In this document: one piece after another, positions 19,260 through 63,072 of the stretch
Numbering within the stretch: the first letter of the stretch is position 1
Layout: each line of letters opens with the position of its first letter
Source: an uncultured Actinomycetes bacterium
GTDB lineage: Bacteria > Actinomycetota > UBA4738 > HRBIN12
Direction of reading: 5' to 3'
DNA length: 64,000 nt
Assembly (NCBI GenBank): GCA_963823255.1
Contig: CAWGKU010000004.1
Location: forward strand, 35,112-99,111
The notes under the pieces: generated by a model
The model's database searches: none
What the model was told of the DNA's origin: nothing
The model's input: the letters and a program-made list of their open reading frames with translations, nothing else
Made by a program: the position numbers and the translations under genes

Positions 19260-19270
19260 GCCGCGAGCGT

Positions 19271-42811: not shown

Positions 42812-45775
42812 TCACTTCGCGGCCTCAGTTGCCAGCGCGACCGCCTCCTCCAAGGACATGGCACCGCCCTCCGTGCGTAGACGTTGCGACTCCGCTTCGC
42901 CTAGAGCGCTCCCTAGCACCTCGATCACGTTTCGTTGGGCCTCCGCCCTCGGTCCTTGCGGATGCATCCCCACCTTCTCTTGCATGGCTGTCGCCGCACC
43001 GAGCAACAGAGCGGCGCGTTCGCTCTCACCGTTGTTGGCCAGCATGTGTGCAACACCGGTCAGGCCGAATGTCGTCTCCCACTCCGATCCCTGGGAGTGG
43101 GCGCCGCGGAGCCCGTTTCGAAACTCGCGTAGGGCGCCCGCGTAGTCCCTCTCGGCCTCACCCAGATGGCTCGCGAGGATGTACTGGCCCAAGACGGTCG
43201 CTTCCGGGGTCCCCTCCTCCTTCACGATCTCCAAGGCTTCGTCGACCGCTCGCTTCGCTCCATCGAGATCTCCCTCCATCCTCCGTCGATGAGCCAGTTG
43301 CCGGAGCCACACGATCTGCATCATCCGATTCCCGGTCTGTCGCAGCACTCCGACCATCTCTTCGAGCGCTGGGCCCGCATCGATGTCTTCGCTCACGTAC
43401 GACAGCCCTACCAAGACGTTCATAGCCATCCACCGCTCCCCGACCTGCTGCGAGAGATCCAACGCTTCTGCGTAGAGCTCACGCGCGCGGTCGTTGTCGC
43501 CCGCACGAACATGCAAACGGCCCAGCGCGTAGAGGAGGTAGATCTGGGAGACGGCATCTTCTGCCTTGCGCGCCACCTCGAGGCCCTCCTCGTAACGAGC
43601 GCGGGCTTCATCTCGATCGTCATCCGCCAACAGCCGACCGAGGACCTGCAGGGCGAAGGCGAGGTCGGCCGCGGCCCCATGAGCCCGACTCAGCTCAACC
43701 GCTTTGTTCGCCGAGTCGATCGCGGACGCCCGATCCCCCACGCGCTGCTCGATCACCGCTTCGAATCGAAGTCCTCGCGCCTCGGTTGGCTTGTCGTGTG
43801 CGCGGACGGCCGCGGCTAGGCCTTCGGTCACCATCGAACGCGCCGACTCGAGCTGGCCGCGATAGAAGGCGAGGAAGGACGCCGCGACCAGCGCGCGTCC
43901 GCGAAGTACGTCATCCGCGTCGGGGGCTCCAGCGAGCGCGTCTTCGAGCCAACCCAACCCTTCGGACCAGTGTCCCCGGACCTCCCAGAATCTCGAGAGC
44001 GCGGCACCGAGTCGGAGCCCGAGCGCGGGATCACCGTCGCCCAGGCTCCAAGCCAGAGCGGTTCGGAAGTTGTCGAGCTCCGATCCGATGCGGTCGAACC
44101 AGGGCGCTTGATCCGGTCCTCCGAGCATCGACTCGGCTCCGGTCTCGGCAAGGTCCGTGAACCACTCCGAGTGCTTGCTCCGGAACTTCTGCGCCTCAGA
44201 AGATGAGACGAGCTTGTCCAGCGCGTACTGGCGCGAGGTCTCCAGCAATCGAAATGCGGCACGGTCACCCGAGCGTTCTCTCATCACCCAGGATGTCGCC
44301 ACCAACCTTCGAAGGAGGGTCACCACCTCCGTACGATCGATCCCGTCGCCGACGCAGACCGCCTCGACATCCTCCAGTGAGAACGACCCCGACATCACCG
44401 ACAGCCTGCGCAACAGAACGCGCTCGGGTTCGGACAACAGGTCGTGACTCCACTCGACCGTCGCCAGGAGCGTCTGCTGCCGTCCCAGGTTGCGTCCGCC
44501 TCCGCCGGTCAGTAACCGGAACCGGTCGTCGAGCCGGGCGAGGATCTCTCCGACGCTCAACGTCCCGACCAAAGCAGCGGCCATCTCGATCGCCAACGGG
44601 ATCCCGTCGAGCCGGATGGTCAGGTGAGCGATCTCGGCGAGTTCCGTTTCGCCCCATTCGAACTCCGGCTCGTGACTCCTCGCCCGTTCGATGAAGAGTT
44701 GGACGGCCTCAGAGGTTTCGCCGGTATCGGTGTCCGAAGGGATCTGCAGACCTCCCACCCGGCGGATCACCTCGCCCGCGACACCGATCGGTTCCCGCGC
44801 AGTCACGAGGACCGTGAGGCCCGGGGCGGCCGAGAGCCACTTCTCCGTGAGCGCTGCGCAGGTCGGGATCAGGTGCTCGCAGTTATCCAGGATCACCAGA
44901 GGTCTCCCTGTCGACAGGAGATCGATCAAGGCGGAGTCGGCAGAGGCCCGGCTCTCTTGAACCCCCATCGCGTTCGCCGCAACCGAGAGAACGAGCTCCC
45001 GGTCGGAAACCGGCGCAAGGTCGACGAACCAGATCCCATCCGGTCGGACGGGGAAGGACGCGGAAGCTGCTTCGATAGCGAGGCGCGTCTTCCCGCAACC
45101 TCCCGGACCGGTCAACGTGACGAGCCGGGCGGTTTCCAAGAGCTCCGCGACCTCCGCCACGTCGCGGTCCCGGCCGATGAAACTCGAGATGGCCTTCGGC
45201 AGGTTGTGTCGTGCGCCGGGAGCGGTGCGTGGAGCGGGGAAGTCGCCCTGAAGGTCGGGGTGATGCAACTGGAACAGGTCTTGGGGCTCGGGGAAGTCCT
45301 TGAGCCGAAAGCGTCCTATCGGCTTCAGTGACACTTCCGGCGGCACCCGCTGTTCGGCCTGAGCTTGGACAGCCTTCGAGGTCAGGACCTGGCCTCCGTG
45401 CGCGGCGGCCGAGATACGCGCGGCCTGATGCACTGCGAGGCCGACGTAGTCATCGTCCTCGTCGATCGTGACTTCGCCGACGTGGATCCCCATCCGCACC
45501 CGCACGTGCGAGTCGGCGGGCCACGTGGCGTTGGCCAGCGCCAGTTGTCCGTCGATCGCACCGAGTATCGCCGACGAGGGATCGGCGAAGGTCACGAACA
45601 GGGCGTCTCCTTCACGTTGCAAGACCGTGCCGCCGTGAGCGGCGAATGCATCGCCGAGCACACGCCGGTGCTCGGCCAGGAGCGTCCGGTACTCGGCTCC
45701 CAGGGTTCTCAGGAGGTTCGTCGAACCCTCGATGTCGGTGAAGAGCAGAGAGAGCGTTTCGATTCGCTCGGCCAC
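42812..45775 (-). CDS. Class III adenylate/guanylate cyclase fused to NB-ARC/AAA (STAND) NTPase and TPR repeats
   Basis: GTG start at 45775 with GGAG overlapping the upstream stop. Cyclase domain (LSLLFTDIEGST...GIHVGEV). Walker A GPGGCGKTRLA. Long TPR-like C-terminus. Confidence 0.8.
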   Translation of the reverse strand: MAERIETLSLLFTDIEGSTNLLRTLGAEYRTLLAEHRRVLGDAFAAHGGTVLQREGDALFVTFADPSSAILGAIDGQLALANATWPADSHVRVRMGIHVGEVTIDEDDDYVGLAVHQAARISAAAHGGQVLTSKAVQAQAEQRVPPEVSLKPIGRFRLKDFPEPQDLFQLHHPDLQGDFPAPRTAPGARHNLPKAISSFIGRDRDVAEVAELLETARLVTLTGPGGCGKTRLAIEAASASFPVRPDGIWFVDLAPVSDRELVLSVAANAMGVQESRASADSALIDLLSTGRPLVILDNCEHLIPTCAALTEKWLSAAPGLTVLVTAREPIGVAGEVIRRVGGLQIPSDTDTGETSEAVQLFIERARSHEPEFEWGETELAEIAHLTIRLDGIPLAIEMAAALVGTLSVGEILARLDDRFRLLTGGGGRNLGRQQTLLATVEWSHDLLSEPERVLLRRLSVMSGSFSLEDVEAVCVGDGIDRTEVVTLLRRLVATSWVMRERSGDRAAFRLLETSRQYALDKLVSSSEAQKFRSKHSEWFTDLAETGAESMLGGPDQAPWFDRIGSELDNFRTALAWSLGDGDPALGLRLGAALSRFWEVRGHWSEGLGWLEDALAGAPDADDVLRGRALVAASFLAFYRGQLESARSMVTEGLAAAVRAHDKPTEARGLRFEAVIEQRVGDRASAIDSANKAVELSRAHGAAADLAFALQVLGRLLADDDRDEARARYEEGLEVARKAEDAVSQIYLLYALGRLHVRAGDNDRARELYAEALDLSQQVGERWMAMNVLVGLSYVSEDIDAGPALEEMVGVLRQTGNRMMQIVWLRQLAHRRRMEGDLDGAKRAVDEALEIVKEEGTPEATVLGQYILASHLGEAERDYAGALREFRNGLRGAHSQGSEWETTFGLTGVAHMLANNGESERAALLLGAATAMQEKVGMHPQGPRAEAQRNVIEVLGSALGEAESQRLRTEGGAMSLEEAVALATEAAK

Positions 45776-45783
45776 CGGGGCTC

Positions 45784-46158
45784 CTACGCGGTTCGGACGA
45801 AGCGGCGGACCACGTCCATCAGACCTTCGAGCTCGGGCGCCGTCGGGGGCAGCTCGTAGGAACCATGATGGCAGGCTCGCGACAACGCCCACCATGCCAG
45901 GTTCACCTCGTGCGCGGTCTCAGTGTCCTCGAGGTAGGACTGGAGACAGAGCAGCTGCACCCGAACCGGAGCGTGCCGTATACCTGGGACTTTTTCCGAG
46001 AGCGCCTCGTGCAGACCGACCTCGAGAGCCTGTCGCGCCAGGACCGCGGTCGCACGCGGCCACAGCCCGGCGGTCTCCGCGGTCGGATGGTTCAGGAGAC
46101 CCGTGGCCCGCTCGAGGATCTCGGCCGACGTCATCTCGCTGGATCCACTTATGCTCAT
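45784..46158 (-). CDS. Small helical protein (124 aa), possible HEPN-like; coupled to upstream Rad50-like ATPase
   Basis: Its start overlaps the ATPase stop (TGATG). It contains an Rx6H (RATGLLNH) segment. The stop lies 8 nt before the cyclase-STAND gene start. Confidence 0.5.
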   Translation of the reverse strand: MSISGSSEMTSAEILERATGLLNHPTAETAGLWPRATAVLARQALEVGLHEALSEKVPGIRHAPVRVQLLCLQSYLEDTETAHEVNLAWWALSRACHHGSYELPPTAPELEGLMDVVRRFVRTA

Positions 46159-48609
46159 CAGGGAAGTTGCACCAGTCCGCGGGCGAGCCTCTCGCTCTCC
46201 TTGACCAAGGTCAGCACGGCCGCCTGGCTCACCGGCTTGTGCGCCGCCTCCTGCACCCGCCGATAGGCTTCGACCGCCCACGCTCCGATCCCTCTGTCGA
46301 GCCGCGGGGCCAGGTCCTTGGTCTTGGTGATGTCGTCGAACAGGGCCAGTGCCATCAGCTCCGAAAGGCCCTTGGCGGAATCGAGGAGAGCCTCGATCGA
46401 CTCGTAGTCCTCGCCGTTGGCGAGCCTTCGCCGCGTGACCGCCTCGGTGCACGCGGCCTCCATCGCCAGACGGCAGAACACCCCCACGATACGAACCTTC
46501 ACCGCGGGATCGAGGTCCTCGCTCTTCGCCACCGCCCACGCGTCGTTGCAGTAGCGGCTGACCGGATCCTGACCGGGGCGCAGCTCGACCACCGACTCGG
46601 GCCTTCGAGTCACCTCGACGATCTTGGCGTCGATCCCCAACAGGCGGCACGAACGTGCAAGGCGCTCGTCGTGCGTGAAGACGACGACCTGGCGTGTTTG
46701 CGCCGCCCTCTCGAGCATGCGCGCCAGCCCATCGACCCGCGCCGGGTCCATCGACTGCACGGGGTCGTCGATGACCACGAAGCGGAACGGGCTCTCCGGG
46801 AGCGTCGCCCTCGGCATGAACAGACTGAGCGCGAGTGAGTTCAACTCCCCCTGACTCATGACCCCGAGCGCAGCGCCCTCCATCCCGTCGACGCTCACGT
46901 CGAGGACGACCTTCCGTGCCGATCCGGCACCGGTGAGCACGATCTTCTTCAGCAGCACGCTGCTTTGCATCCGGAGCATGTCCCAGACGCCCTGAGCCTG
47001 ATCGGCGATGGGAGCGAAGCGCTCGTTGCGTATGTCGTTGGAGGCAGCACGGATCCATTTCTCGGCGGCACTCAGGTCCTTCAGCACGTCCTCACCGCTG
47101 CGGGCTCGCTTCGCGGTGTCGAGCCATCCCGCGAGATCGGTTGCGATCGGACGCCAGACGTCCTCCCTTCGCTGAAGTTCCTTCGAGGCCGTCGCCTTCA
47201 GCCTCGTCACGCCCTCGGAGACCGGCTGAAGAGATGCCCGGAGATGCTGCGCGAGGGCCTCCGACTCCTCGATCGACGCGCCAGCCGACCACGCCTTCCA
47301 CGCGCCGATCACGTCTTCGACGTCCAGCCCGATCTCGGAGGCGCTCGACAGCACCGCGGGCACCGGCAACAGATGCGCTCGGGCGCTCTTGATCGACTCT
47401 TCCATCAACTGGTGGGCCAGGTCGACCTGCTCCGCCAGCTGACGGAGGCGGCCGAGCTCCTCCTCGGTCGCCGTGCGCCACTGGGCGTTGAGCGCTCCCT
47501 CTCCGCACACCGGGCAGCCCTGATCGCCGTGTCGTTCGTGGAACGCGAGCGCGGCCCCCAGGAGCTCTGCGGTCTGGCGCGCCTTGGCCGCCTCGGTGCC
47601 TCCCATCTCGCGAAGGGCGGACGCGGCGGCCTCGAGTCCGTCGGCGGCCGTCTTCACCTCATCGGCATCGGGCGGCTCCAAGACCGCGAGCTGTCGAAGC
47701 ACCGCGAGCTGACTCTCCTCTCGGTCGGCCTCCTCGGTTCCGATGACGGCCTTCTCCACCGCGTCGAGATCCCAGGTCTTGGCCGAAATTGCCTCGATGC
47801 ACACGCTCGCCCTCTCGTCTTCGACCATGGCGAGCCGTTCGAGGATCGGCGGCAGAGCCAGCTTCGCCTCGTCGGAGAGTTTCTTCCTCTGTTTGCTCGC
47901 TTCCTTGAGTCGAGCCTCAGCTTCGATCAGTTCCTCGAGACCCAGGATCGCGGAGAGGGCGTCATACAGAGCGGAAGGGCCGGCGTCGAGCATCGAGCCG
48001 AGCTCGCTGTAGGACAGGAAGGGGCGGTACATCTCGATCGCGCCCGCCCACCCCATCGTCTCCAGATCCGACTTCGTCGAACCCTGAGCTGAAACGATCG
48101 TATCGGCCTCCTCCAGCTTGGCGTCGGGCTTCCACTCCCTCGATACCACCGTCGTCCCCTTCGCCCCCTCGATGACGAACTCGGCATCGATGCGGGCGTC
48201 GGACTGGTGCAGGTTGCGCCATCCTTCCTTCCAGATGGCCGATCGGGTACTCCAACGGCTGTTGTCGCCGGTGAGCAGTAGCTCCAGTGCCTCGGCGAAA
48301 CTCGACTTGCCGCTTCCGTTGCGCCCGACGACGAGCGTGAGGCCTGGGCCGGTGGTGATCGGGAGCGACGCCGGATGGGCCAACGCCGCGAAAACCCCGC
48401 ACTTCGATCGATCGGATGTAGGCGGGATTCCGGGCAGAGGCCGCTTTGGCCTCAGCCTTCTTTGGGGATCTGGGGGCCTTACCCTCCAGCGTTACGTCGA
48501 GAGCATCGGCGCCGTGGCACGCCCCGATGACCAGGGCCCGGGTGCGCTCCGCCAGCTTGTCGTCGGCGTCTAGCCGCCCGAGGATGATGCCCTCGAGTAC
48601 GTCGTCCAT
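46158..48609 (-). CDS. Rad50/SbcC-like ABC ATPase with long coiled coil and CxxC zinc hook (apparent frameshift near 48400)
   Basis: The N-terminus ...NPAYIRSIEVRGFRGVGP (ORF 47962..48609) joins the 741-aa ORF. Walker A GRNGSGKSS, mid-protein GCPVCGEG zinc hook, signature-like MSQGELNSLALSLF, Walker B FVVIDDPVQSMD, H-loop VVVFTHDE. Confidence 0.7.
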
Positions 48610-49024
48610 CGCTTCAACGAGGGTATTTCAAATCCGGTCTAGCCGGCAGGTCAACCTGGATCCGTTGTCGACAACGAACAGGAAGGGTTGAGGTAGTTCG
48701 TAGCGTCAGCGATGGGGGTGGGAAGTCGGCGCCCCGCGCGCGGCGTTGCACCGTTGATGGTGGGTCCGCGGCAACTGAGGGTTGCGCTGACGTTTCGTTG
48801 CGTCGGGCATGTACGGCCGGGTCGCCTTGGCCCGGTATCTCGCGGCATGATCTTGATCCCTCCCACGTACCCTTTGCGCGACCGCGTGTTCGCGCCGCAC
48901 GGCGAGCCGGTCGTGCAGCCGTTTCCAAGCTCGCGGACTTGCACGAGCGCGCAAGTGCCGTCGTGGTCCTCCGGGCTGAACTAGATACTGAGAGAAGCCT
49001 CCGTCGACTTCGAGATGTCTCTAC

Positions 49025-50047
49025 TCACCCGAGCAAAGGTGCGGTTCCCCAGCGAGGTGAGCTCTCCCATCGATGCGTCCGCGTCAGCGGCTTGAAGTGG
49101 TCGATACGCATGTGGTCGTCGAAGTGCCCGATCCAGACATCCGCGTTCCCTTTCCTACCGACGCCCGGGTAGACGCCGATCGTCATCCGGGTGCCGTCCG
49201 GCGAGAACGAGGACGACGTGAAGGAGAACTCGCGGCCCCCGTCGATGAGCACCCGGAACCCGCTGCCGTCGGGGTGGCTGAGGAACACCTGCTGCGTGCC
49301 GGGAGCCTCGTCGTTCCGGTAGATGATCCACCGCCCGTCCGGAGACCAATCTGGGGAGTCCCCCGCCAAGAGACCCTTCGGCGAGACGCGCTCGACGTCT
49401 GATCCGTCGGTGGAATCCGCCGTGAAGATCGCAGGCTTCCAGTCTCGGCGCGCCAGCCTGCGCTCGAAGACGATCCGGGTTCCGTCGGGAGACCACTGAG
49501 GATCGAAATCCTCTGATCGCTGGAACCCGGTCGGTTGGGTGATCTGGCGGAGCCCTGTGCCGTCGGGATGGATCGCCCAAATGCTGACGTCAGCGGATTG
49601 GTGGTTCGTCACCGGCCCCGTGGCGAGGCTGAAGGCGATCCACTGTCCATCGGGGGACCAGGATGCCAAGAGGGCCGCACGGCACACGTCGTCGCCGGGG
49701 CACGGGAAGAGTCGGTGCGGGTTCGACCCGTCGACGTTGACGACCCAGATCTCGTGCGTCTCGGACTCGGGCGTGAACGTGACCCTCTCGAAAGCGAGCT
49801 GACTCCCGTCGGGGGACCAGTTCTGCGTGTAGTCGAGCTGGTTCGGGGCCGGGAACGTTATCCGGGTCTCGTGACTCCCGTCCGGGTTGACGACGAACAG
49901 CGCCCCGTTCGTGTGCTTGTCGTTGAAGTACCGCCGGAACGAGATCAGCCCATTCTCGCCCGGAGCGGTGGCGTGCACCGGCGCCGCCACGAGCACCAGC
50001 GTGCACAGGGCCGTCGAAAGCGCGATTGCCCGCGAAAGATGCCTCAT
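49025..50047 (-). CDS. Secreted TolB-like / PD40 beta-propeller repeat protein
   Basis: Signal peptide MRHLSRAIALSTALCTLVLVAAPVHA. Repeated WSPDG motifs. Confidence 0.8.
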   Translation of the reverse strand: MRHLSRAIALSTALCTLVLVAAPVHATAPGENGLISFRRYFNDKHTNGALFVVNPDGSHETRITFPAPNQLDYTQNWSPDGSQLAFERVTFTPESETHEIWVVNVDGSNPHRLFPCPGDDVCRAALLASWSPDGQWIAFSLATGPVTNHQSADVSIWAIHPDGTGLRQITQPTGFQRSEDFDPQWSPDGTRIVFERRLARRDWKPAIFTADSTDGSDVERVSPKGLLAGDSPDWSPDGRWIIYRNDEAPGTQQVFLSHPDGSGFRVLIDGGREFSFTSSSFSPDGTRMTIGVYPGVGRKGNADVWIGHFDDHMRIDHFKPLTRTHRWESSPRWGTAPLLG

Positions 50048-50612
50048 CGATCCCCCTTCGCGGGCGCGCTAGTAGGGGCACGGACGCTACTACGTCGGTG
50101 ACTCCGGCGTGCGAGCCGGTCATCTCCCCCTCGAGGCGAACGCCTCCACTATTCGCGGCTGCGGCCCGACGAGGCGAACCTCGATGCTCCAGCGTGGGAT
50201 TCAGCGCGTCGCCGAGTTGGCCGCAAAGGCCGACGATCTCGTCGACGAGGCGATCGCGGTCGGGCACAGCCGTCCGATCCGCTCGTCGTCCACGCGCTCC
50301 GGCTGGAACTCCTCAAGGTGACGGCCGACCTCGAACGTGAACTCGGGACGTTTCTCGACACGCGGGTCCCGGCTCGCCACGGAGAGAGCAGCTTCCTGTC
50401 TCACCTGAAGAGCGACGGCGCGAGAGCCGCTCGATGGATCTATGAGCGGGTCTGGGGACCCGTCAATAGTCCGAATGGGTGATGGTCGGGTGGGCCGCGC
50501 CGTGCCGGTCCGTAGACCCATCGTGCGACATGACCGACGGCGCGCGCGATGGTACTTAATGCGTCTCCGAAGTCGAAGTGGTCTACGACGCCCACCAGGA
50601 GCCAACGGACCC

Positions 50613-51932
50613 ATGTCGATCATCGAACGTTCCGCCTCGCCACAGGCTCCGGCCGCCGGGTCGAAGCCGCGCGGCGGCCGGTTGCGCGTGATCACGGCGG
50701 GCAGCGTGGGCAACATGGAGGCTCGGCTCGGGACGAGTGGGTTCGACGTCGTCGCGGTCGCCGAGACGGAGGAGGCGCTGATCGATGCCGTGTCGGCGGA
50801 CGAGGCGGACGCGATCGTCGTCGAGGCCGACCTTTGCGACTCGCTCGAGCGCGTTCGAGATCTGGCACCCAATGCACTGCTCATCGTCATCGGCGATCAC
50901 ACGCCCGCCGGCGCGCTCGGTCGCATCGAGCCTGGTGTGTCAGGGACCGTGATGGCCGGGCTCCTGCACGCGCTGGTCGCCGAAGGCGTCGGGGGGGCCG
51001 TCGGGTGGGGGCTCGTGCCCGCGTTGGGACCGCGGGGCGTGCTGCAAGTTCCCCAGCGCATCAGCGGATGGCTGCTATCGGCCAAAGCGGATCTCGTCCG
51101 AGAGTACGTTGCGAACGCCTTTCGCGACCACGCGGAACTCCTTACCGCGGCGAGCACCGTCGCGGTGACCGTTTCCGCGAGCCTTGTGCTGACGCTGAGC
51201 GCAGCCCACACGCACGAACGTTCACACGAACGCTCGGAGCGCGTCCATGTTTCCGCGCCGGCCGTGGAGCGCGCGCCGCTGTATCCGGCCGTCGCTGTTT
51301 CCCCCACGACGCCAACACCCGCCTATGTTCCCTCCCAGAACGAGGGCGAGCCCGGCGACCGACGAGGGCTGAACCGCGGTGAGTCAGGAGCTGATGGTCG
51401 CCCAGTGGGCCAGGACGCCGACGATATGGGCCAGATCGAGAACGCTGGCGACGATCTGGGTCAGGTCGAGACCGCCGCCAACGATCTGGGCCAAGGCGAG
51501 AACGCCGGCGACGATCACGGCCAGGACGAGAACGCCGGCGCCGATCACGGCAAGAACGAGAACGCCGGCGACGATCACGGCCAGGGCGAGAACGCCGGCG
51601 ACGATCACGGGCAGGGCGAGAACGCCGGCGACGATCACGGCAAGAACGAGAACGCCGGCGACGATCACGGCAAGGGCGGCGACGATCAGGACGGCGACGT
51701 GAGCGAGGGTGACGACCAGGACGCTGGCGACCAGGACGGTGAGAACCAGGACGGTGAGAACCAGGACGGTGAGAACCAGGACGGTGAGAACCAGGACGGT
51801 GAGAACCAGGACGGTGAGAACCAGGACGGTGACGAGGAGGACGGTGACGACCAGGACGTCGCGGGGGATACAGCGACCGCCGCCGGGACCTCGGCGTCAA
51901 GTCCAGCGACTGGAGTCGCCCTGACCTACTAG
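50613..51932 (+). CDS. Receiver-like (pseudo-receiver) domain protein with long acidic low-complexity repeat tail
   Basis: N-terminus RLRVITAGSVGNMEARLGTSGFDVVAVAETEEALIDAVSADEADAIVVEADL is REC-like. The C-terminus has ~9 copies of (ENAGDDHGQG) and ~7 copies of (GENQD). Confidence 0.55.
   Translation: MSIIERSASPQAPAAGSKPRGGRLRVITAGSVGNMEARLGTSGFDVVAVAETEEALIDAVSADEADAIVVEADLCDSLERVRDLAPNALLIVIGDHTPAGALGRIEPGVSGTVMAGLLHALVAEGVGGAVGWGLVPALGPRGVLQVPQRISGWLLSAKADLVREYVANAFRDHAELLTAASTVAVTVSASLVLTLSAAHTHERSHERSERVHVSAPAVERAPLYPAVAVSPTTPTPAYVPSQNEGEPGDRRGLNRGESGADGRPVGQDADDMGQIENAGDDLGQVETAANDLGQGENAGDDHGQDENAGADHGKNENAGDDHGQGENAGDDHGQGENAGDDHGKNENAGDDHGKGGDDQDGDVSEGDDQDAGDQDGENQDGENQDGENQDGENQDGENQDGENQDGDEEDGDDQDVAGDTATAAGTSASSPATGVALTY
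51411..51684. repeat. 30-nt coding tandem repeat (~9 units, GACGATCACGGCCAGGGCGAGAACGCCGGC-like)
   Basis: Direct inspection. The units diverge at the edges. Confidence 0.8.
51733..51830. repeat. 15-nt coding tandem repeat (GACGGTGAGAACCAG x6-7)
   Basis: Direct inspection. Encodes DGENQ repeats. Confidence 0.85.
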
Positions 51933-52129
51933 CGTCCGGTCATGTCCTTCGAGGAGATGGGAGCAAGCGCTCCGCCACGCCTTAATGGATCAGTGGAGGA
52001 TCGAGCAGCCTTCGTTCGCATGAGGGTCGCCCAGTAGCCGGGCAACCCCTCGATCCGTCGGTCAGCCACCGGGATTCCAGGGCCCGTGGCCCGGCTTCTG
52101 GGACGTCAGGAACGGAACCAACAACCCGT

Positions 52130-52207
52130 GGCGTCGTGTTCGGCGACGCTTTTCGTGCCTACGCTACCCAGCCCTCTCGATCCGCCCCCAACACTCCTTG
52201 TGCGTAC
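52130..52207. repeat. Interspersed repeat copy (hairpin + TTTTCGTGCCT...CCCTCTCGATCCGCC + tail)
   Basis: Aligns with the copies at 53499, 55017, 55693 and 20004. Leading hairpin GCGTCGTGTTCGGCGACGC. Confidence 0.7.
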
Positions 52208-52409
52208 ACCGAATGGTGATGGGTCGTGTCAGATCAGCTTCATGGCGCAGATGGCAATGGGGTCGAGTAACGGGGTCGAGTAACGGGGTGCAAGTCCGAG
52301 GGCCAGGCACTGGGCGCACCGGGAGCCCACGCCGCACGGCGAACCGGCGGCCTAGACTCCGCAGGAGAATCTGCGATCCGTGCCCGCGTGACTAGCCGAG
52401 GAGGCCGTT

Positions 52410-53444
52410 CTGAGCGAGCGGGTCTGCCTCCGGTGTGACTGGACCGGCGAGACGGAAGCGGCCGTCTGTCCCAGGTGCGGGGCACCTCTATACGGACTCC
52501 CGGAACCGACGACTCCCCACGAGGTCACCCAAGCCCCCCACATGCAACGGCATCCGGCGGATGACCGCATGGACAGCTCGCCGATCGAGGCGGCCCGAGA
52601 CGAGAGCGTCCCACCTGCCGAGCCGGTCGCCGCCAGCAGGCGGTGGGCGGTGATCGTTGGTGCCCTCGCGGTGGCGGCGGTCTGGAACGTTGTGAGCCAC
52701 GGCCCGTTCGACCGCCTCCAGATGCCCGTCGTCCCGGGAGGGGCGCAGACAGGACCGACGGTCATCATGGGGTCGTTCTACCCCGAACAGGTGGGCGCCT
52801 CCGTTCTTCCACCCGAGGGGGCATCGCCGAGCGCTCCGGAGCGCGGAAAGCTCGTCGCGGGCAAGGAAGACATCTACGTCTACGCCGACGGGCGGATGAT
52901 CTGGGGTCGAGAGGGTTTGCCCGTCTGGCTCGAGCAACGCCTCACACCTGAGGGCGTCGAGCTCGTGCGTTCGGGTGCGGTACGGCTCGATGGTCAGTCC
53001 TTGGACCCCGGGTCGGCCCTGCCGGAAGGCGTGTTGGAGCCTCGGCTGATCGAGGCGTACGTCCCGTCAAGCTTCGCCGTCTGCCCCGGGCGCTGGCCTT
53101 GGAACACGGGATCGCCCGAACCGTCGTCCATCCTGGCCCATCTCCCGGTCCCGGCCCAGGCGTTGCTCCGAGGCAATGAACGGACGTACGACGCATCCGG
53201 GGGGGTGATCGGAGGCAACCCACCACGTCCATTCACATGCTTCGAGGTGACCACCGAGGAGGCTCGAGCACTCGACGGGATCTTCCGCGATGCGGGGATC
53301 GAACGGATCGACGAACTGGATAGCTCGACACCCTCGCAATGGGTCGTCTACGAGGTCAGGGCCACGGCCGCGATTCGCCGATCGTTCATCTCGATGATGC
53401 CGCTCCTCCCGCATGGAGAGTGGGGATTCTCGGACGCCGGATGA
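52410..53444 (+). CDS. Membrane-anchored hypothetical protein with N-terminal zinc-ribbon (start codon uncertain)
   Basis: The frame is open from 52392. CLRCDWTGETEAAVCPRCG lies upstream of the first ATG (52542). RBS GAGGAGG at 52397. One TM (WAVIVGALAVAAVWNVV), then a ~250-aa extracytoplasmic domain. Confidence 0.5.
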   Translation: MSERVCLRCDWTGETEAAVCPRCGAPLYGLPEPTTPHEVTQAPHMQRHPADDRMDSSPIEAARDESVPPAEPVAASRRWAVIVGALAVAAVWNVVSHGPFDRLQMPVVPGGAQTGPTVIMGSFYPEQVGASVLPPEGASPSAPERGKLVAGKEDIYVYADGRMIWGREGLPVWLEQRLTPEGVELVRSGAVRLDGQSLDPGSALPEGVLEPRLIEAYVPSSFAVCPGRWPWNTGSPEPSSILAHLPVPAQALLRGNERTYDASGGVIGGNPPRPFTCFEVTTEEARALDGIFRDAGIERIDELDSSTPSQWVVYEVRATAAIRRSFISMMPLLPHGEWGFSDAG

Positions 53445-53498
53445 GCGCCCACGGGTTCGAACGGCCCAGGTCGGCCGCGAGCCCGAGCAGTCCACCCC

Positions 53499-53576
53499 GC
53501 CGTCGCGTTCAGCGACGGTTTCCGTGCCTGCGCCACCCAACCCTCTCGATCCGCCCTCAACGCTCCTTATGCGTCG
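53499..53576. repeat. Interspersed repeat copy
   Basis: CCGTCGCGTTCAGCGACGG hairpin + TTTCCGTGCCTGCGCCACCCAACCCTCTCGATCCGCCCTCAACGCTCCTTATGCG. Confidence 0.7.
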
Positions 53577-53786
53577 ACCGAACAAGACGGGGTTAGCGGT
53601 CTTGAGATCACGTCCGTGCTACCGGGCGCACCGGATGCCCGCGCCGCATGGCGATCCGTCCAGTCGGGGTGGCGAAGTGTCTCGTCCCGCTTATCTGCTG
53701 CAGCTCAGGTCACTCCAGCTTCGTATCCGAGGGTCGGGCGTTGGACCCGTGGCGACCTCTAAGGCCCAGAGGTATGGTTCGCGGAA

Positions 53787-54098
53787 GTGGACGACCTGCC
53801 AGCAGCCGACATGGCCGAGCTGTGCCACGAGCACCAAGACTGCATCAAGGGGTTCAAGGCGACCGCGACTGGCGACCTTGCGCCGCTGGCGGGTTGGTGG
53901 CATTTCGTGTGGGACCAGGAAGACATGCAGTGGAACATCACTGATCCGACCGGCGAGAACGGCTATGTGGTCGTCCAATCTGTGGATGCGTCGTTCCCGC
54001 CCGCGGCTCTGATCGATGCGGCTCCTGGAATATTGCTCCAGCCGATCGTCTCCATCATCGAAGAAGAGGGCCTCTTCCCTCCGATACGCCGCTCCTAG
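53787..54098 (+). CDS. Hypothetical protein
   Basis: 103 aa, protein-like composition (WWHFVWDQEDMQWNITDPTGENGYVVVQ). No known domain. Confidence 0.35.
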   Translation: MDDLPAADMAELCHEHQDCIKGFKATATGDLAPLAGWWHFVWDQEDMQWNITDPTGENGYVVVQSVDASFPPAALIDAAPGILLQPIVSIIEEEGLFPPIRRS

Positions 54099-54232
54099 CG
54101 CCAGGAGCCTCCTCGTCGCGATTTCGATGCTGGAATGAACCGGACCTGGGACCCGACCGTATTCCCAGTCGCGAACACGCGAGTGAAGAGCGTCGGCCGG
54201 GCTCGAGAGCCCCTGCCCTGAAGAGAACGAAG

Positions 54233-54769
54233 ATGAAGTCATCGACAAGAACGGCCCGCCGGGTCTGGATCGCCTCTGCGGTCGCGCTGATCGCGTTGTC
54301 CGCCTGCGCCAAGAACGCCGCCCCCAGCTCAGAAGGCGGCAGTTCCACGAGTACACACGCGGGCTCGGTCATCATCGGAACGAAGTCGGTTCCCGGGGCT
54401 GGCACCGTGCTCGTGGACTCGAGCGGATCGACGCTGTACGAGTTGGCATCTGAAACCGGTGGAACGATCATGTGCACCGGCTCGTGCGCCACGACGTGGC
54501 CACCCTTGCTCCTGCCGGTCGGCGTGAGCTCGGCAACCGCGGGAAACGGAGTCAGCGCGAGCGAGCTGGGCACGATCTCGCGACCCGACGGAGGCACGCA
54601 GGTCACGTACGCGGGGATGCCGCTGTACTTGTTCGTCAGCGACCACGACCCGGGACAGGCAACCGGCCAGGGGGTTGAAGGATTCCACACGGCCACTCTC
54701 TCGGGCTCCGGCTCAATGAGCGGGGCCAGCGGGAGCAGCGGGGGCCGGTACGGGTACGGGAGCGGGTAA
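54233..54769 (+). CDS. COG4315-family predicted lipoprotein (secreted repeat, Lipoprotein_15-like)
   Basis: Lipobox LSAC. Two repeats of the G..LVDS.G.TLY...D...G...C.G.CA..WPP and PLYLFVSDHDPGQATGQGVEGFH patterns. Confidence 0.75.
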   Translation: MKSSTRTARRVWIASAVALIALSACAKNAAPSSEGGSSTSTHAGSVIIGTKSVPGAGTVLVDSSGSTLYELASETGGTIMCTGSCATTWPPLLLPVGVSSATAGNGVSASELGTISRPDGGTQVTYAGMPLYLFVSDHDPGQATGQGVEGFHTATLSGSGSMSGASGSSGGRYGYGSG

Positions 54770-55016
54770 TTCGGGGCCTCAAACCAGCAACATGCCGAAG
54801 ATCACTGCCGAACGGGCAATCTGGTGGATCCACGACTCCGAATCGGGACTTGGCGCTGCCTTCATGACGAGAGGCAGGCAGCGAAACGACTGAAGCGAGG
54901 TCGAAGGGGGGTGGTACCGCTTGAACGGTGCTGCCCCTCGCCAACCAACAAGACTTCACCGCGGGCTCGGGGCACCGCCGCTTGGGAGTTCAGGAAGTCG
55001 TCCAAGCCGACATGTC

Positions 55017-55080
55017 TAGCGACGCATTTCGTGCCTGCGCTTCCCAGCCCTCTCGATCCGCCCTCAACGCTCCTGATGCG
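55017..55080. repeat. Interspersed repeat copy
   Basis: GACGCATTTCGTGCCTGCGCTTCCCAGCCCTCTCGATCCGCCCTCAACGCTCCTGATGCG. Confidence 0.7.
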
Positions 55081-55207
55081 AAGAGTCCACGCCCATGAGC
55101 CGCCGGGGCATGACCACCTCTTCATCCCCCCCGGATGATGCACCGCTCATGCCCTTGCGCTCGAATGGCATGAGGGTTCGGCCCTGGGTAGGAAGGCTGG
55201 TGGCGAC

Positions 55208-55618
55208 ATGATCTGGGCGATTCTCGTGCTGCTCGGGGTCCCGCTGTGGGTGTGTGCAATCGGCATCCTCGTGATCGCGTTCGGCAACCGCAAGCTACGG
55301 AAGCGCCACGGCGACATCCCGGTCCGCGTGAGGCTCCCCGGGAAGAACCGATGGACCCGAGGGCACGCGATCTGGGTGTCGGACGTGTTCGCGTGGCGGG
55401 GTAGCCCCGCCGCCTGGGACGAGGATCTCGAACGGATCTCCGACGTGACGATGCGGAGCCCCGACCCTGAGGAACGCAAGAAGCTGCACCACCTCGGTGA
55501 GGGGTTCGTGATCGCGACGCTTTCGATGAAGGACGGCGAGGCCCTCGACGTGGCCGCCGGACCGGATGACAGCTCCGCGCTCCTCGGACCCTTCGAACCC
55601 AAGATGCAGCTGGCATAA
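55208..55618 (+). CDS. DUF2550-family membrane protein
   Basis: N-terminal TM, then RVRLPGKNRWTRGHAIWVSDVFAWRGSPAAW...ISDVTMRSPDPEERKKL, matching the DUF2550 pattern. Confidence 0.6.
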   Translation: MIWAILVLLGVPLWVCAIGILVIAFGNRKLRKRHGDIPVRVRLPGKNRWTRGHAIWVSDVFAWRGSPAAWDEDLERISDVTMRSPDPEERKKLHHLGEGFVIATLSMKDGEALDVAAGPDDSSALLGPFEPKMQLA

Positions 55619-55692
55619 CGGCCCAGACCGCACGTGAGGGCTCGGAGAGGCTTCGCACGAGAGGCGTGATAGCGCGCCGCACGTCGAGCCAG

Positions 55693-55783
55693 TGCGTCGC
55701 TTCCAGCGACGGTTTCCGTGCCTGCCTCCCCAGCCCTCTCGATCCGCCGATCGTCCTCCACGTAGACGACACACGGTCCTTGC
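55693..55783. repeat. Interspersed repeat copy (5' module + spacer + GACACACGGTCC core)
   Basis: GCGTCGCTTCCAGCGACGG hairpin + TTTCCGTGCCTGCCTCCCCAGCCCTCTCGATCCGCCGATCGTCCTCCACGTAGACGACACACGGTCC. Confidence 0.7.
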
Positions 55784-55914
55784 GCTTCGGTGTCACCAGT
55801 CTCCCAAACCTGCGCTGCGTAGCACTCCGGGATGCTCGTGAACCGAGAGCCCGCGCCGAATCGACAAGCGAACGCCCCGGCTGGAACGGCCAGGGCGATC
55901 CGCAGTCGCTTGGT

Positions 55915-56304
55915 TCAGCGGCGTTGGTGGCGGTCGTAGAAGCTCGCCGGGAGCCCGTCGCTGATGATCCAGTTGGTCACGAGCTTGTTACTGATGAGCT
56001 TGTGTGTCTTGATCCCGAGCTCCAGCCGGGCTTGGGCGTTCAGTTCGCTTGGTGTGTTCGCTGTGCCGCCGAGCGTCTGCTCGGCCCCGCCCACGATCCC
56101 GGCGTTCAGCTCGCTCGGGGTGTTGACCTCGCTCGGCGTGTTGACCAGCTGACGGCCGACGGACGTTGTCTGACCCCGCTGCCCTTGGTCGACCGAGATG
56201 GCGACCACGCCGATGGTCAGCATGACGAACGACGCGAGGAACGTAGCGAGCAAGATGGAACCGCCCGCCCTAGGCGCCTGCTGCGTTCCGACCCTGGTGC
56301 TCAT
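55915..56304 (-). CDS. Membrane-anchored hypothetical protein with NTPSE(L/V)N repeats
   Basis: One TM (ILLATFLASFVMLTIGVVAI). Three NTPSEVN/NTPSELN repeats. Confidence 0.45.
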   Translation of the reverse strand: MSTRVGTQQAPRAGGSILLATFLASFVMLTIGVVAISVDQGQRGQTTSVGRQLVNTPSEVNTPSELNAGIVGGAEQTLGGTANTPSELNAQARLELGIKTHKLISNKLVTNWIISDGLPASFYDRHQRR

Positions 56305-56585
56305 CGTTCCCTCCCTTCGGCTCTGTCACTTGGATACGTCTCGAGTGGACCGTAGACCGGGCACTCTGGCGGGTCGGTGCTTCGAAGCACCTGGTTGAGG
56401 TGACCTCGCTCACTGGCGGCTTGAAGGCCCGACGGGGGCGCCGGGGGACGATCGACGAACAGCGCATACAGGCTGCACGCCGCGTCAGCGCCCGTGAGAC
56501 GGGCGACGGAGTCGACGAGCATCGCGCTCTGGCCGACCACGCAGTCGGGTTCGGGCCGTGCTCGGCTGCCGCGGATCCGGGTCGG

Positions 56586-59500
56586 TTACTGGACCCAGAG
56601 GCGACTGAGCAGGATCCCCCATTGAGGGTGGACCTGGACGTTTTCCACGCGTGCCGAGACGGCGAGCGTGGAGACCGGGTTATCCACGGGGGCCACGATC
56701 GCGTCCTCGACGAGCTGGTGATCGAGATCCGTCCACGCGCTGTTCGCGGCCGCCGGATCGGTCTCCTGGAGCCGGAGGGCGTGCTTGAACATGGCGTTCA
56801 GACTCTCGCTGCAAAAGCCCGAGTAGGGGCCCCACCGGCGCTCCGCACCAGACCTTTGGCGTTGATGAAATCGCTGGCGATCGGGTAGGTCGAGATCCAG
56901 CCGCCAAGGTATGCCTGCGCCTCGCCCGCTGTCGATCGCCGCGAACTACTGGTCGATCGTGTCCACGATCTTCAGGTTCGCTCGCAGGCCGAGATCGTTC
57001 AGGACCTCGATGACGTACCGCATGACCTCGACCTCCGCTCGGGGAAGACCGAGGGTGTCGGCATCCATACGGTGACCTTCTCCCCCATGACTCCGGCGTC
57101 CTCGATCAGGGCATGCGCTCGATCGAGATCCGGGGCGGACCACACACCGCTGTCCGGCTCAAGGGTGTATGGGCAGAACGGCTCGTAGCCCTGGAAGTTC
57201 GGCGGGAGCATCTGGCACGTCGGACGATGGCTCGAGGGGCCGCCGTGCAGCTCGACCACATGATCTCGATCGATCGCGTAGTTCAGAGCCTGCCGCACCC
57301 GAACGTCGTCGAACGGTGGCGTGAGAGACGTTGAACCCGACCCAGGAGGTGCCGCAATCGGCCAGGGCACGACCTGATCGGGGTGCTCTGCCTGGAGCGA
57401 TGCCAGGTCCTGCGGCCGCGGCACGTCGGTCATCCAGTCGAGCTCGCCCGCGCTGAGCCGATCGAAGGCGTTCGCGGGGTCCTGTCCGAACCGCCACGAG
57501 ATCGCGTCCACGAAGCCATCGGGCTGGGCCGCGCCCGACCACTCGCGGAACTCAGGGTTCCGCACCAACTCGACGCCGTCGGCGCCGGCCTCCGCGATCA
57601 TGTACGGCCCCGTCGCCGGTACGGGCTCGAGACCCTGGTCCTCGGCCGGGATCTCGACGGGGACCGGGTAGGTCACGGGCAGCGCGAGCTTGTAGGGCAG
57701 GTCGGGATCCGGCCGCACGAGGTGGAACGTCACCGCCTCGGCGTCGGCGACGATCGATCCGGAGAGATCGCATGTGGACGGCTCCGCGATGCAGGCCTCC
57801 GCACCGTCGATCGTGCTTGAACAGGTGGCGGCCTCCGCGGCGATCGCGAGAAATCGCTCCACGGCGTGCCGGAAGTCCTCGGGGCGCACGGGTTCCCCGG
57901 TCGAGTAGCTGATCCCCTGGCGAAGCGGGAACCGATAGGTGAGTCCATCGGCGGATATCTCGGGGAGCGTCGAGGCGAGGTCCGGGACCAACGTCGCGCC
58001 TCCGGGCCTCCGACCTTCTCGTAGGACAGGAGCCCGTCGTTCGTGATCGCCAGGATCTGCCCCGCGAGGGTGTCGTTGAATACAACGATCGCGGGGTCGA
58101 GCGACTTCGGAGCTCCTCTGCTCAGACGAGACGGTCAGGGTGCCGCCGCGGTGCTCTGCGGCCGATGCTCCGACGGCGAGCCACAGGCCATTACCCTCGG
58201 TCGCCAGCGAAGCCGCCGTCCCGCCGACGGGGATCGCCTGCCCGACGTCGTTCGTGCCTGGGTCGATCGCACTGATCGTGTCATCGAACTCGTTGGCGAC
58301 CCACACGGAGCCCGCCACGTCCACGAGCGCGTTCGGGCCCTCACCGAGCCCGATGATCGTGTCCTGGATATCTCCGCTCGATGGATCCAGCCGCATCACG
58401 GTGTTGTCGAGGTGGTTCGAGACCCAGATGGAGTCGAAGGCCGCGTCCACTGCAGTTGGACCGTTGCCCACCGACTGCGTCAGCGTCACGCTCACGTCGG
58501 TCGGATCGACACGCGCCACCCCGTTCGGCGCGATACGAGACCCAGACGCCGTGGGAAGTGAACGCCACGCCGGAGGGCTGTCCGGCTAACGGGACGGACC
58601 GCGTCTCACCCGAGGTCGGATCGATGCGTAGCAGCACAGCCCCTACCGAGTCGGCGACCCAAAGCGCGCCGTCGCCGAACGCGATCCCCATCGGGACCGA
58701 ACCGGCGGGGAGGGTCTGACTGACCTCGTTGGTACCGACGTTGATCCGGCGCACCGTGCCATCGCCGGCATTGGTGACCCATACCGCCCCGGCACCGATC
58801 GCGATGCCCGAAGGAGAGGCGCCCACCGGGATCGTGTCGGTGACCGAACCGTCCTCCAGGTCCAGGCGTGCGACGACGTCACGGTCCGGCTCGGCGACCC
58901 ATACGCTCCCGAAGCCGATCGCGCTCGCACCGGGGCGCTGCCCCAGAGGCGTGGCGAAGTCGAGGCTCCCCTCCTCGGCGTTCATCCGCGCGATCGAGTT
59001 CGTCCCGACATCGACGGCCTCGCCGCCATCGGACCCGAGCAGCGGGATGGCGATCGCGACGAGCGCCAAGACAACGGCGATCCCGACGACGACCGGCCAG
59101 CGCCGTGAGGTCCTCCGCCCCGCGGGAAGGGGTGGCGGCGCGAAGGGGCGCAGCCGCTCGACGGGGTCCTCGCCCTCAGGCACGACGCGGACGACCACGA
59201 TGGGTTCGTCCAGTCCTTTAAGCAACAAGGGACCGCGGTCCTCGTACCGGACGCCATCCACCCGTCGCGCCAGGTGCGTGACTTCCCGCGAGGCGAGGAT
59301 CTCGCCGGCCCGGGCCTCGCCACAGAGCCGGGCCGCGAGGTTCAGGGCTCCGCCCCGGTAGCCACCCTGGACCGCAACCGCCTCGCCCGCGTCCAGGCCG
59401 ATCCCGAACGTGAGCGGCAGCTCCGGCTCCCGGAGCGTCTCCTGCACGAACCGCCGCTGGAGGTCTACCGCGGCGCGGATCGACTCCCGGGTTGAGGAGA

Positions 59501-59768
59501 ATACGCACACCGCTTCGTCCCCACGTAGCTCGAGCAGCGTGCCCCCGCGCGCCTCGACCCCTTCGCGCGCGATGTCGGCGAACTTGGCCGCAAGCTTGGC
59601 CGCGGCCTCGTCGCCACGCTCTTGCGTGAACCGGGTCCACCCGCGCATGTCGGCGATGAGGAACGTCCGGATGTGGACGTCCTCGGTGCTTTCGGTTTGG
59701 CCTTGGAGCGGCCGATCCTCATGGACCACGGGTGAGTATGCGCTTACGTGATGATGGGTTGTAGCCAC
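56586..59768 (-). CDS. Class III adenylate/guanylate cyclase - TM - YVTN beta-propeller - family-5 solute-binding (SBP_bac_5) fusion; multiple apparent frameshifts
   Basis: N-terminal cyclase (VHIRTFLIADMRGWTRFT...GIGLDAGEAV). TM (WPVVVGIAVVLALVAIAIPLL). Propeller repeats (VWVTNAGDGTVRRINVGTNEV..., NTVMRLDPSSGDIQD). SBP5 (GGTLTV...LVPDLASTLPEISADGLTYRF...). The SBP5 C-terminus (...HPQWGILLSRLWVQ) is in a separate frame. Frame changes occur near 58400, 58085, 58010 and 56800-57000. Confidence 0.55.
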
Positions 59769-59896
59769 CCGCGATGGTGGGCTCTCAGAGAGCCAGCGGG
59801 CCGCTGCCGTTACGCTGGTCTGCCTGTACCACTTTCGACCCCCGGCCCTTCCTATCCTTCATGTGCGGGGCCACTCAAACAGAGGGTGCCGCAGGC

Positions 59897-59988
59897 TCCG
59901 ATCCATCGATCCGTGCGCCAACTGACGCGACACACGGTCTCGTGCCTGGGTTGTTGTTTCGATTCACGACACACGGTTCGCTGCCTCG
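59897..59988. repeat. MIRU-like interspersed repeat, long-form copy 2
   Basis: ~88% identical to 4652..4740 (GATCCATCGAT...CGCCAACTGACGCGACACACGGTCTCGTGCCTG...GACACACGGTTCGCTGCCTCG). Confidence 0.75.
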
Positions 59989-60006
59989 AATATCTTGTTG
60001 GTAGCG

Positions 60007-62800: not shown

Positions 62801-62880
62801 GTTGGAGAATCTCGAATGGCGCTGCGAGTCATGGTCGAGGAGGATCGGCTGGCGCTGAACGACGGGAGACTCGCTTAGCG

Positions 62881-62910
62881 CCTCGACTCATGACACACGG
62901 TTCGCTGCAC
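62881..62910. repeat. Interspersed repeat, short form (CCTCGACTCATGACACACGGTTCGCTGCAC)
   Basis: Matches 19271..19300 and the 3' module of the long-form copies. Confidence 0.6.
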
Positions 62911-63072
62911 TCAGAGTCTCCCTCATCGACGAAGGCAGACAAGTCGAGACCGCCCTCCTGAGCACGTATGTGAACCATGTCCGACCGTTGATCGCTACGG
63001 ACACCTTCGTCATCGATCTCCTCTCGGTCGACGTTCGCTACCCTCGCGCGATCGACATGACAACGGATGGTG

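Follow-up and report, generated by a model that had tools for sequence, protein, structure and literature searches.

A mosaic family of interspersed repeats at gene-module boundaries in soil Actinomycetota

Between 52 and 56 kb of a 64,000-nt stretch of DNA from an uncultured Actinomycetes bacterium (contig CAWGKU010000004.1, positions 35,112 to 99,111 of the forward strand; the whole stretch is hereafter called the window, and all positions are counted from its first base), four open reading frames (ORFs) on the plus strand are punctuated by four same-orientation copies of a repeat of about 85 bases, here named F1. A fifth copy lies at 19982-20064. Is this locus an integron cassette array, which it resembles in layout, or a hotspot at which the repeats themselves are involved in rearrangement? 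The comparisons presented here show that the array is not an integron and that F1 is a previously undescribed, lineage-restricted, noncoding mosaic family of interspersed repeats in soil Actinomycetota. With moderate confidence, we interpret the locus as a repeat-associated gene-shuffling hotspot in which recombination between dispersed F1 copies moves gene modules, host general recombination being the favoured agent.

The array and the anatomy of the F1 family

Profile searches delimit the four F1 copies of the array to 52125-52213, 53498-53582, 55002-55086 and 55690-55773 and the distant fifth copy to 19982-20064. These limits agree with the repeat starts at 52130, 53499, 55017 and 55693 given by a first-pass annotation of the sequence, which had also placed the four ORFs on the plus strand, as the ORF list does. 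A 20-mer, CCCARCCCTCTCGATCCGCC, is found at 20020, 52167, 53536, 55043 and 55729; all five occurrences are on the plus strand, and 0.09 are expected by chance. Composite repeat 1 (52095-52349, plus strand), resolved by nhmmer profile matches, consists of an upstream module, F1 copy 1, a long linker (52214-52302) and a module termed B2 (52303-52349). A 13-nt tandem duplication reported at this place is real (Tandem Repeats Finder: 52259-52289, period 13, 2.4 copies, 100% match). It sits in the long linker and belongs to the repeat family, because it is also duplicated in an unrelated locus (L049) and present as a single unit in L026; both contigs contain the full-length composite including the duplication region, in unrelated contexts.

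Composite repeat 1 is followed by module B (52410-53444, plus strand), the gene of a 300-aa protein. The zinc ribbon previously ascribed to this protein is visible as a CxxC...CxxC pattern with weak Pfam support (E 0.02-0.18); it is in frame, at the N-terminus, only if translation begins at a CTG (52410) that is preceded by the Shine-Dalgarno sequence GAGGAGG; the earliest canonical start codon is an ATG at 52542. Composite repeat 2 (53470-53662, plus strand) comprises a 5′ module named M5 (approx. 53470-53501, with GAGCAGTCCA at 53485-53494), F1 copy 2, a linker (53583-53612) and B2 (53613-53662). It precedes module C (53787-54098, plus strand), a hypothetical ORF of 103 aa (ORF103) for which no family match was found. 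Module D (54233-54769, plus strand), in which substitutions favour the third codon position, encodes a lipoprotein. Its earlier assignment to COG4315 is borne out by a match to Lipoprotein_15 (PF03640, E 2e-21) and by a member of its cluster at ≥90% identity that is named 'predicted lipoprotein with Yx(FWY)xxD motif', the name of COG4315. An alternative 5′ module, M5b (GGGAGTTCAGGAAGTCGTCCAAGCCGA), and F1 copy 3 with a type A tail (54975-55086 together, F1 at 55002-55086, plus strand) separate module D from module E (55208-55618, plus strand), the gene of a 136-aa DUF2550-like membrane protein. Here the label DUF2550 is weakly supported (E 0.013, 15.9 bits compared with a cut-off of 27 bits); the alignment spans profile positions 3-118 of 127, and one homologue has a precomputed PF10739 match. 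The array ends with F1 copy 4 and its type B tail (55690-55786, plus strand), in which the 12-mer ACGACACACGGT occupies 55766-55777. The description of the repeats as separators of all four genes does not apply to ORF103 and the lipoprotein gene, between which there is no repeat, and the units of the array are gene, gene, two genes and gene.

The F1 family was recovered by scanning genome and metagenome collections and then by means of an nhmmer profile, yielding 85 matches, 59 of which are distinct full-length copies, in 55 sequences, all of them contigs of soil Actinomycetota. In the alignment of these 59 copies, F1 is composed of a hairpin (CGTCGCG-loop-GCGACGG), the invariant blocks CGTGCCTGCGC and CCCTCTYGATCCGCC, a 7-nt hypervariable stretch, and CTCC with an alternative tail. 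The palindromic part amounts to about 19 of about 85 nt, and two copies carry compensatory T-A to C-G changes in the hairpin. The copies are intergenic, lie in direct orientation and stand where gene modules begin or end. Since indels break every reading frame and the alignment has no codon periodicity, F1 is not coding. It stands alone or within composites of 150-260 nt, in which a 5′ module (M5 or M5b), F1, a short or long linker and B2 follow each other in one orientation throughout. M5 is a 34-nt module (..GAGCAGTCCAYCCCGCCG) that can precede F1; M5b, common to F1 copy 3 and L056, and GGCAG-type modules are alternatives at this place, and B2 (GCGCACCGGGAGCCCGCGCCGCAYGGCGANCC) can stand 3′ of the linker. 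These 5′ modules, tails of type A, B or B-long, short or long linkers and B2 reassort freely, and in two loci (L030 and L046) M5 is fused straight to B2. B-long tails stop at the identical base in five independent copies. Along F1, positions 64-87 form one tightly linked block (r2 up to 0.93) and show no linkage to positions 14-55; the boundary falls within the invariant GATCCGCC. This pattern fits exchange at the invariant core, be it homologous or site-specific.

A shorter relative of F1, termed F2, has four copies in the window, all on the plus strand: one at 4650-4744, a short one at 19266-19301 directly 3′ of the stop codon of an ABC transporter gene, one at 59895-59991 with 12-mers at 59927 and 59966, and an F2-like copy at 62854-62912 with the 12-mer ATGACACACGGT at 62890. 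The 12-mer ACGACACACGGT is common to F1 type B tails and F2 and occurs seven times in the window, always on the plus strand, compared with 0.5 expected occurrences. F1 copy 5, which has a type B tail and is preceded by an M5 remnant (19970-20064, plus strand), is part of a lineage-specific segment, downstream of which comes a syntenic M20 peptidase gene. In an internally deleted F1 copy (29766-29807, plus strand) the core is joined straight to ACGACACACGAT, and B2 occurs on its own at 38423-38472 and as a partial module at 48881-48910, both on the plus strand. Thus, five F1 copies, four F2 copies and one internally deleted F1 copy are accommodated in 64 kb. Four F1 copies are found in 6.7 kb of L010, a contig of a GTDB representative metagenome-assembled genome. 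Positions 1-1352 of L010 are 94% identical to window positions 39284-40631 over 1.35 kb; beyond lies a diverging 5.4-kb stretch that holds all four F1 copies as well as genes that the window lacks.

An Rfam 15 scan of the window gave no match to F1, and a permissive scan of 51900-56000 gave four chance matches (E 2.8 to 7.4). Phage, plasmid and viral collections contained no F1 match either, and no published description of the family was found in the literature searched. Matches of the 20-mer in Opp/Dpp ATPase genes (PSPLDPP) were dismissed as chance matches in unrelated phyla. Read on the reverse strand, B-type tails give VYVE.KGRIERV and, in five copies, (V)TEVMVNGPDDVYVERKGRIERV, like the start of CpaF/TadA ATPases. 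A protein-coding role of the tail was rejected: the best Pfam match, T2SSE, reached only E 0.02-0.05, there was no PDB match, and the window holds no such gene. Judging from the sequence similarity, a CpaF/TadA-like sequence may be the evolutionary source of the B-type tail and not its function. F1 copies in L056, L043, L035 and L013 encode this motif on the antisense strand of their B-long tails. An intergenic remnant at 5060-5113 (plus strand), which corresponds to a partial F1 tail on the minus strand at 5073-5107, reads ITEVIVNGSDDVYVDPERRIEL*, resembling the N-terminal motif of CpaF/TadA (T2SSE).

Rearranged modules in related genomes

The closest strain, represented by a 266-kb contig (L069), is collinear with the window from 45020 to 55786 at 99.4-99.6% identity and has kept all four ORF and repeat units. 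Collinearity stops at 55786, which is the 3′ end of F1 copy 4; in L070, assembled independently from reads, the break falls on this base too. Collinearity with L069 returns at 59966, the first base of a 12-mer in the F2 copy at 59895-59991. In place of the strain-variable segment between these points (55787-59965), L069 has a 6.0-kb segment with a 1604-aa nSTAND/WD40 gene, and only 55860-56423 is common to both at 80% identity. This common part includes a gene on the minus strand (55915-56304) for a 129-aa membrane protein with NTPSE(L/V)N repeats; its identity of 80% to the L069 counterpart, compared with 99.5% in the flanks, suggests an imported or fast-evolving allele. Overlapping minus-strand ORFs at 56999-59768, one of the SBP_bac_5 and one of the Vgb_lyase/DUF6923 beta-propeller type, look like one frameshifted gene, and this whole segment is absent from L069. 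Two smaller differences between the strains are associated with microhomology. A 185-nt segment of the window (50246-50430), bounded by TCGA, is absent from L069 and lies just upstream of 50456, where homology to the 7.1-kb cycle described below begins. An 840-nt difference at 62843 was considered as a repeat event and rejected in favour of an ordinary microhomology deletion: at 62843-62847 the window has lost 840 nt between GATCG sequences, which cuts short a CsoR-like repressor gene and eliminates an ORF of 63 aa.

More distant relatives carry the modules in other arrangements. In L024 (about 95% identity), a unit of F1, B2 and ORF103 stands behind unrelated genes. Homology to the window starts at 53496, the M5/F1 boundary of composite repeat 2, and F1 and B2 are 88% but ORF103 98.7% identical to their counterparts. 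Ten contigs from other samples (L081-L090), about 96-97% identical in the common modules, have the order A-C-D-X-B-Z and then A again, compared with A, B, C, D, E ... Z in the window; the window-type order is supported by three assemblies and that of the relatives by ten. In terms of these relatives, module A is 50524-52031, C is ORF103, X is a 1.4-kb segment absent from the window, B is the 300-aa gene together with F1 copy 2, and Z is 62890-64000. Module C directly follows module A, and F1 copies 1, 3 and 4 are missing along with gene E. In L081-L087 module B comes after the lipoprotein gene, not ahead of ORF103. Homology of module B starts at 52347, the 3′ end of B2 in composite repeat 1, and ends at 53573 inside the tail of F1 copy 2, and module Z begins at 62890 with the first base of the 12-mer ATGACACACGGT. 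The gene of module D is found alone in another context in L032 (90.6% identity). Module E has 832 homologues, and in seven more distant genomes the gene is located beside DUF6325 or SulP without a repeat. In the window, modules B and E, both placed differently in relatives, are each flanked by direct F1 copies. In the strain comparison that the first-pass annotation had suggested as a test, the locus is thus not syntenic in relatives, although the individual ORF and repeat units are unchanged in the closest strain; the perfect synteny that it would have taken as refutation of a hotspot does not exist.

Among the ten contigs, L081 (7245 nt) begins and ends with the same 141 nt (MEGAHIT, k = 141). 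The 7.1-kb unit thus defined contains the window modules in the order A, C, D, B, Z and is likewise found in L082-L086; in five contigs besides L081, Z is again followed by A. Contigs with the lipoprotein variant of the cycle are never longer than 7.2 kb in 34 sample blocks, whereas other variants of this protein are located on contigs of 68-508 kb. As the ends repeat, Z joins A and longer contigs are missing, the unit is circular or tandemly repeated. Its sequence would be compatible with a circular replicon, an excised circle or a tandem array, and no recognisable replication (Rep) or recombination protein is encoded in it. The chromosomal region of the window has A at its start and Z at its end, which is what one would expect of a copy of the cycle that had been linearised and rearranged. 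In the ORF at 50442-51932, imperfect 30-nt and 15-nt tandem coding repeats (51386-51860, plus strand) give rise to an acidic (GENAGDDHGQ)n / (GENQD)n tail, and related contigs break or vary in length at this place.

The association of F1 with breakpoints extends beyond this locus. F1 lies at homology breakpoints in many unrelated loci. Of 156 internal homology endpoints among all loci, 31 are no more than 25 nt away from an F1 copy, compared with a random expectation of 5.8 and a random maximum of 15, and several are only 0-2 nt away from an F1 edge. Positions at which breakpoints were seen are the M5/F1 boundary, the F1 tail just past GATCCGCC, the 3′ end of B2 and the initial base of the 12-mer ACGACACACGGT. 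As the breakpoints coincide with repeat modules or lie inside them, strain comparison supports the earlier suggestion of a repeat-mediated, cassette-like hotspot. Some candidates for simple insertion were discarded. Copy 5 is not a clean case of presence and absence, as the whole upstream segment differs, and the apparently filled and empty sites in L046/L067 and L030/L021/L032 are mosaic junctions that are not orthologous, the downstream DNA being different too.

Known systems and candidate mechanisms

The integron reading fails for want of an integrase, of attC core sites and of an attC-like fold. No complete integron is known from Actinobacteria (PMC4889954, PMC9024848). The first-pass annotation had already noted that an integrase gene and obvious GTTRRRY sites were missing, and Pfam, a motif screen and the alignment confirm this. 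Pfam identified no integrase or other recombinase among 23 ORFs of the window scanned with it. Tyrosine recombinase (IntI), other recombinase, transposase, RAYT-like, HUH and TnpA proteins were not detected in six-frame ORFs from about 400 kb of repeat-flanking DNA by a screen that was crude, covering the available flanks with simple motifs and selected ORFs with Pfam. RYYYAAC/GTTRRRY core sites are not conserved in the 59 aligned copies, where GTT is followed by TCC or CAG instead of RRR. The sole near-match to RYYYAAC, CCTCAAC, is not conserved, lies in the hypervariable stretch and stands in the wrong order. Moreover, single F1 units do not form an attC-type hairpin spanning the whole site of 57-141 nt. 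What is cassette-like is the location of co-oriented sites 3′ of mostly promoterless, unrelated genes and a content that varies among strains. Clusters of attC sites without integrase are known as CALINs. The locus resembles integron arrays and CALINs in that co-oriented repeats lie 3′ of small unrelated genes on the same strand, neighbouring repeats have diverged and modules are placed differently in related genomes; the lack of a nearby integrase is shared with CALINs. In contrast to both, F1 has neither RYYYAAC/GTTRRRY nor an attC-type imperfect palindrome in its unit of about 85 nt and is not accompanied by IntI, its units may hold two genes, and copies are also scattered singly along the chromosome.

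Several other systems share traits with F1. Repetitive extragenic palindromic (REP) sequences and bacterial interspersed mosaic elements (BIMEs) are sites of rearrangement in enterobacteria. Like F1, they are short, intergenic and noncoding and combine a small hairpin and short motifs in alternative mosaics. However, F1 is in direct rather than alternating orientation, its sequence is unrelated, its conserved part is mostly single-stranded and not palindromic, and no RAYT gene was seen by the motif screen in about 400 kb of flanks. Miniature inverted-repeat transposable elements (MITEs) and MITE-flanked units, e.g. integron mobilisation units, are comparable as small, non-autonomous multi-copy sequences, two copies of which flank one gene as F1 does in modules B and E, whereas F1 lacks terminal inverted repeats, target-site duplications, fixed termini and a related autonomous insertion sequence. 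The pdif site is a 28-nt dif-like sequence with two 11-nt arms and a 6-nt spacer and occurs in alternating orientation. The Xer-dependent pdif modules of Acinetobacter plasmids are similar to the F1 array because they, too, are gene modules with short conserved sites in varied contexts and orders that encode no recombinase of their own. F1 differs from pdif by its chromosomal setting, by the exclusively direct orientation of its copies and by the absence of an 11-6-11 XerC/XerD-type dyad; in the 59-copy alignment there is no dyad symmetry around GATCCGCC-N7-CTCC. Finally, the 'linker' boundary sequences of mosaic phages are short conserved sequences at module edges where divergent genomes exchange. 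F1 resides in a cellular chromosome and in the 7.1-kb cycle instead and has no match in phage or viral collections.

If the locus is a gene-shuffling hotspot, as we favour, the repeats would act as portable junction sequences. Dispersed copies would then recombine through crossovers within their invariant blocks and so excise, delete, relocate or replace the modules between them, and arrays such as gene-F1-gene-F1 would be the outcome. The agent would be host general recombination or gene conversion rather than a dedicated integrase, because no recombinase travels with the repeats. A number of observations argue against this interpretation. Neighbouring F1 copies in the window share only 78-85% identity, and their uninterrupted matches measure about 16-20 nt, which makes them poor RecA-type substrates. 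Passive homology does not explain why F1, F2 and B2 copies are all on one strand over 64 kb in which the genes are split 50:50 between the strands. Some junctions lie 50-115 nt outside the repeats, contrary to a single-site mechanism; the A-C junction of the relatives (52031/53711) is 93 nt and 48 nt outside the composites, and the homology break at copy 5 is about 115 nt from the repeat. Furthermore, the alignments run through shared repeats, which inflates the match of endpoints to repeat edges, the random null ignores a preference of breakpoints for intergenic DNA, and the contigs compared are for the most part single metagenome assemblies that may contain chimeric joins at repeats.

Alternatively, F1 and its composites might be non-autonomous mobile elements of the REP, MITE or IS200/IS605-derived palindrome-associated transposable element (PATE) type that are moved in trans by a single-strand-specific HUH-type or other transposase with its gene elsewhere in the genome, copy pairs carrying a gene between them and rearrangements arising as by-products of insertion and subsequent recombination. 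Two PATE traits, a conserved hairpin with compensatory T-A to C-G changes in two copies and a uniform strand, fit. Extra copies in 17 multi-copy loci are on the strand of the first copy in 28 of 28 cases, and an orientation maintained regardless of gene direction would be given by strand-specific, replication-coupled transposition. However, no correlation of strand and GC skew is seen (21 of 43 loci), a comparison that is uninformative because the skew is so flat. F1 seems to have been inserted at one fixed point of an M5-B2 unit, as judged by the direct M5-B2 fusions in L030 and L046. The common end of five independent B-long tails points in the same direction, and so does the restriction of the family to one lineage and its absence around the same genes in more distant relatives. 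Nevertheless, terminal inverted repeats and target duplications are lacking, 5′ and 3′ extents vary by module so that there are no fixed termini, the crude motif screen of the flanks revealed no transposase (TnpA included) or RAYT-like gene, and the apparent filled and empty sites are not orthologous. On balance, we regard a mobile element as rather unlikely.

A smaller chance is given to the possibility that F1 and the 12-mer are sites of a dedicated, so far unknown site-specific recombinase that moves cassettes via circular intermediates, i.e. an integron-like system with another site and another enzyme. This would account for the cassette-like layout of one or two genes followed by a co-oriented site, with B and E each between direct copies, and for the sharp linkage boundary at an invariant 8-mer next to the 7-nt hypervariable stretch. 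Two independent comparisons (59966 and 62890) have homology starting exactly with the first base of the 12-mer, and in many samples the related 7.1-kb unit is assembled into a closed cycle, without ever being part of a longer contig. Contrary to this idea, no recombinase gene was found near any array in the available flanks, breakpoints occur at several positions of the element (M5/F1 boundary, core, tail and B2 end), and the putative crossover point has no dyad symmetry. No pair of F1 copies delimits the cycle, which may have no relation to the repeats and be a plasmid or a tandem array. It is equally improbable that F1 and ACGACACACGGT constitute the sites of a new non-integron cassette system in Actinomycetota, in which modules would be cut out as circles and integrated again at other copies. 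Last, the repeats might primarily be cis-acting transcript elements (a terminator or mRNA-stabilising hairpin with a C-rich tract, or a 5′ leader) that were copied with paralogous operons, breakpoints being incidental. On the plus strand the F1 hairpin is followed by a T-rich stretch, the core is C-rich and G-poor, M5 starts a few nucleotides past the stop codon of PD40/anti-sigma paralogues in several loci, B2 lies upstream of a co-oriented gene in 12 of 16 cases, and in the 255-nt full-length composite the core and the linker end can pair to form a long imperfect hairpin. Yet the preference of F1 for co-directional gene pairs (12 against 7) is not significant and seven copies are antisense to both neighbours. 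Neither a promoter nor a terminator consensus was found at the repeats. Single F1 units form only the 7-bp 5′ hairpin, with fold z-scores from −1.4 to +1.0 on either strand relative to shuffled sequences, and compensatory pairs are absent outside this small hairpin. For the full-length composite (no compensatory pairs, z about 0), a structured RNA was rejected for lack of covariation and of an energy signal. As the same genes function without the repeat in other lineages, a transcript element has in our view a slight chance.

Gene neighbourhood, other features and implications

Recurrent neighbours of F1 are genes for extracytoplasmic function (ECF) sigma factors, anti-sigma/PD40 proteins and cyclase-STAND paralogues, and a recombinase cluster is not among the neighbouring proteins. 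Pairs of ECF sigma and anti-sigma/PD40 beta-propeller genes adjoin F1 or M5 copies (11 sources each), for instance in L010, L021, L023, L036, L038, L044, L046 and L067 and in the window at 7733-8359. M5 often begins a few nucleotides past the stop codon of the PD40 gene. Part of the spread of the repeat may ride on the duplication of these paralogous ECF sigma/anti-sigma/PD40 operons. Apart from the repeat family, the window contains a SAM-I/IV riboswitch at 25865-25986 on the plus strand (Rfam RF01725, 57.3 bits), the only curated RNA family to pass the threshold, and a 15-nt tandem array of about 14 units at 1969-2257 (GCCGTGGCCTTCTTG) that is probably coding on the minus strand.

Actinomycetota are major soil bacteria with very plastic genomes and without integrons, and how their small accessory genes are shuffled is poorly understood. 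With its module junctions, its linkage boundary, the reordered relatives and the 7.1-kb cycle, the F1 family provides a testable handle on this process, which is useful whether the answer turns out to be host recombination at portable homology or a new dedicated enzyme. If a new cassette system did exist, the 7.1-kb unit, which is assembled into a closed cycle from many soil samples, would serve its modules as a circular carrier or represent an intermediate of them. In addition, F1-type repeats are likely break points for metagenome assembly and for synteny-based annotation of these lineages.

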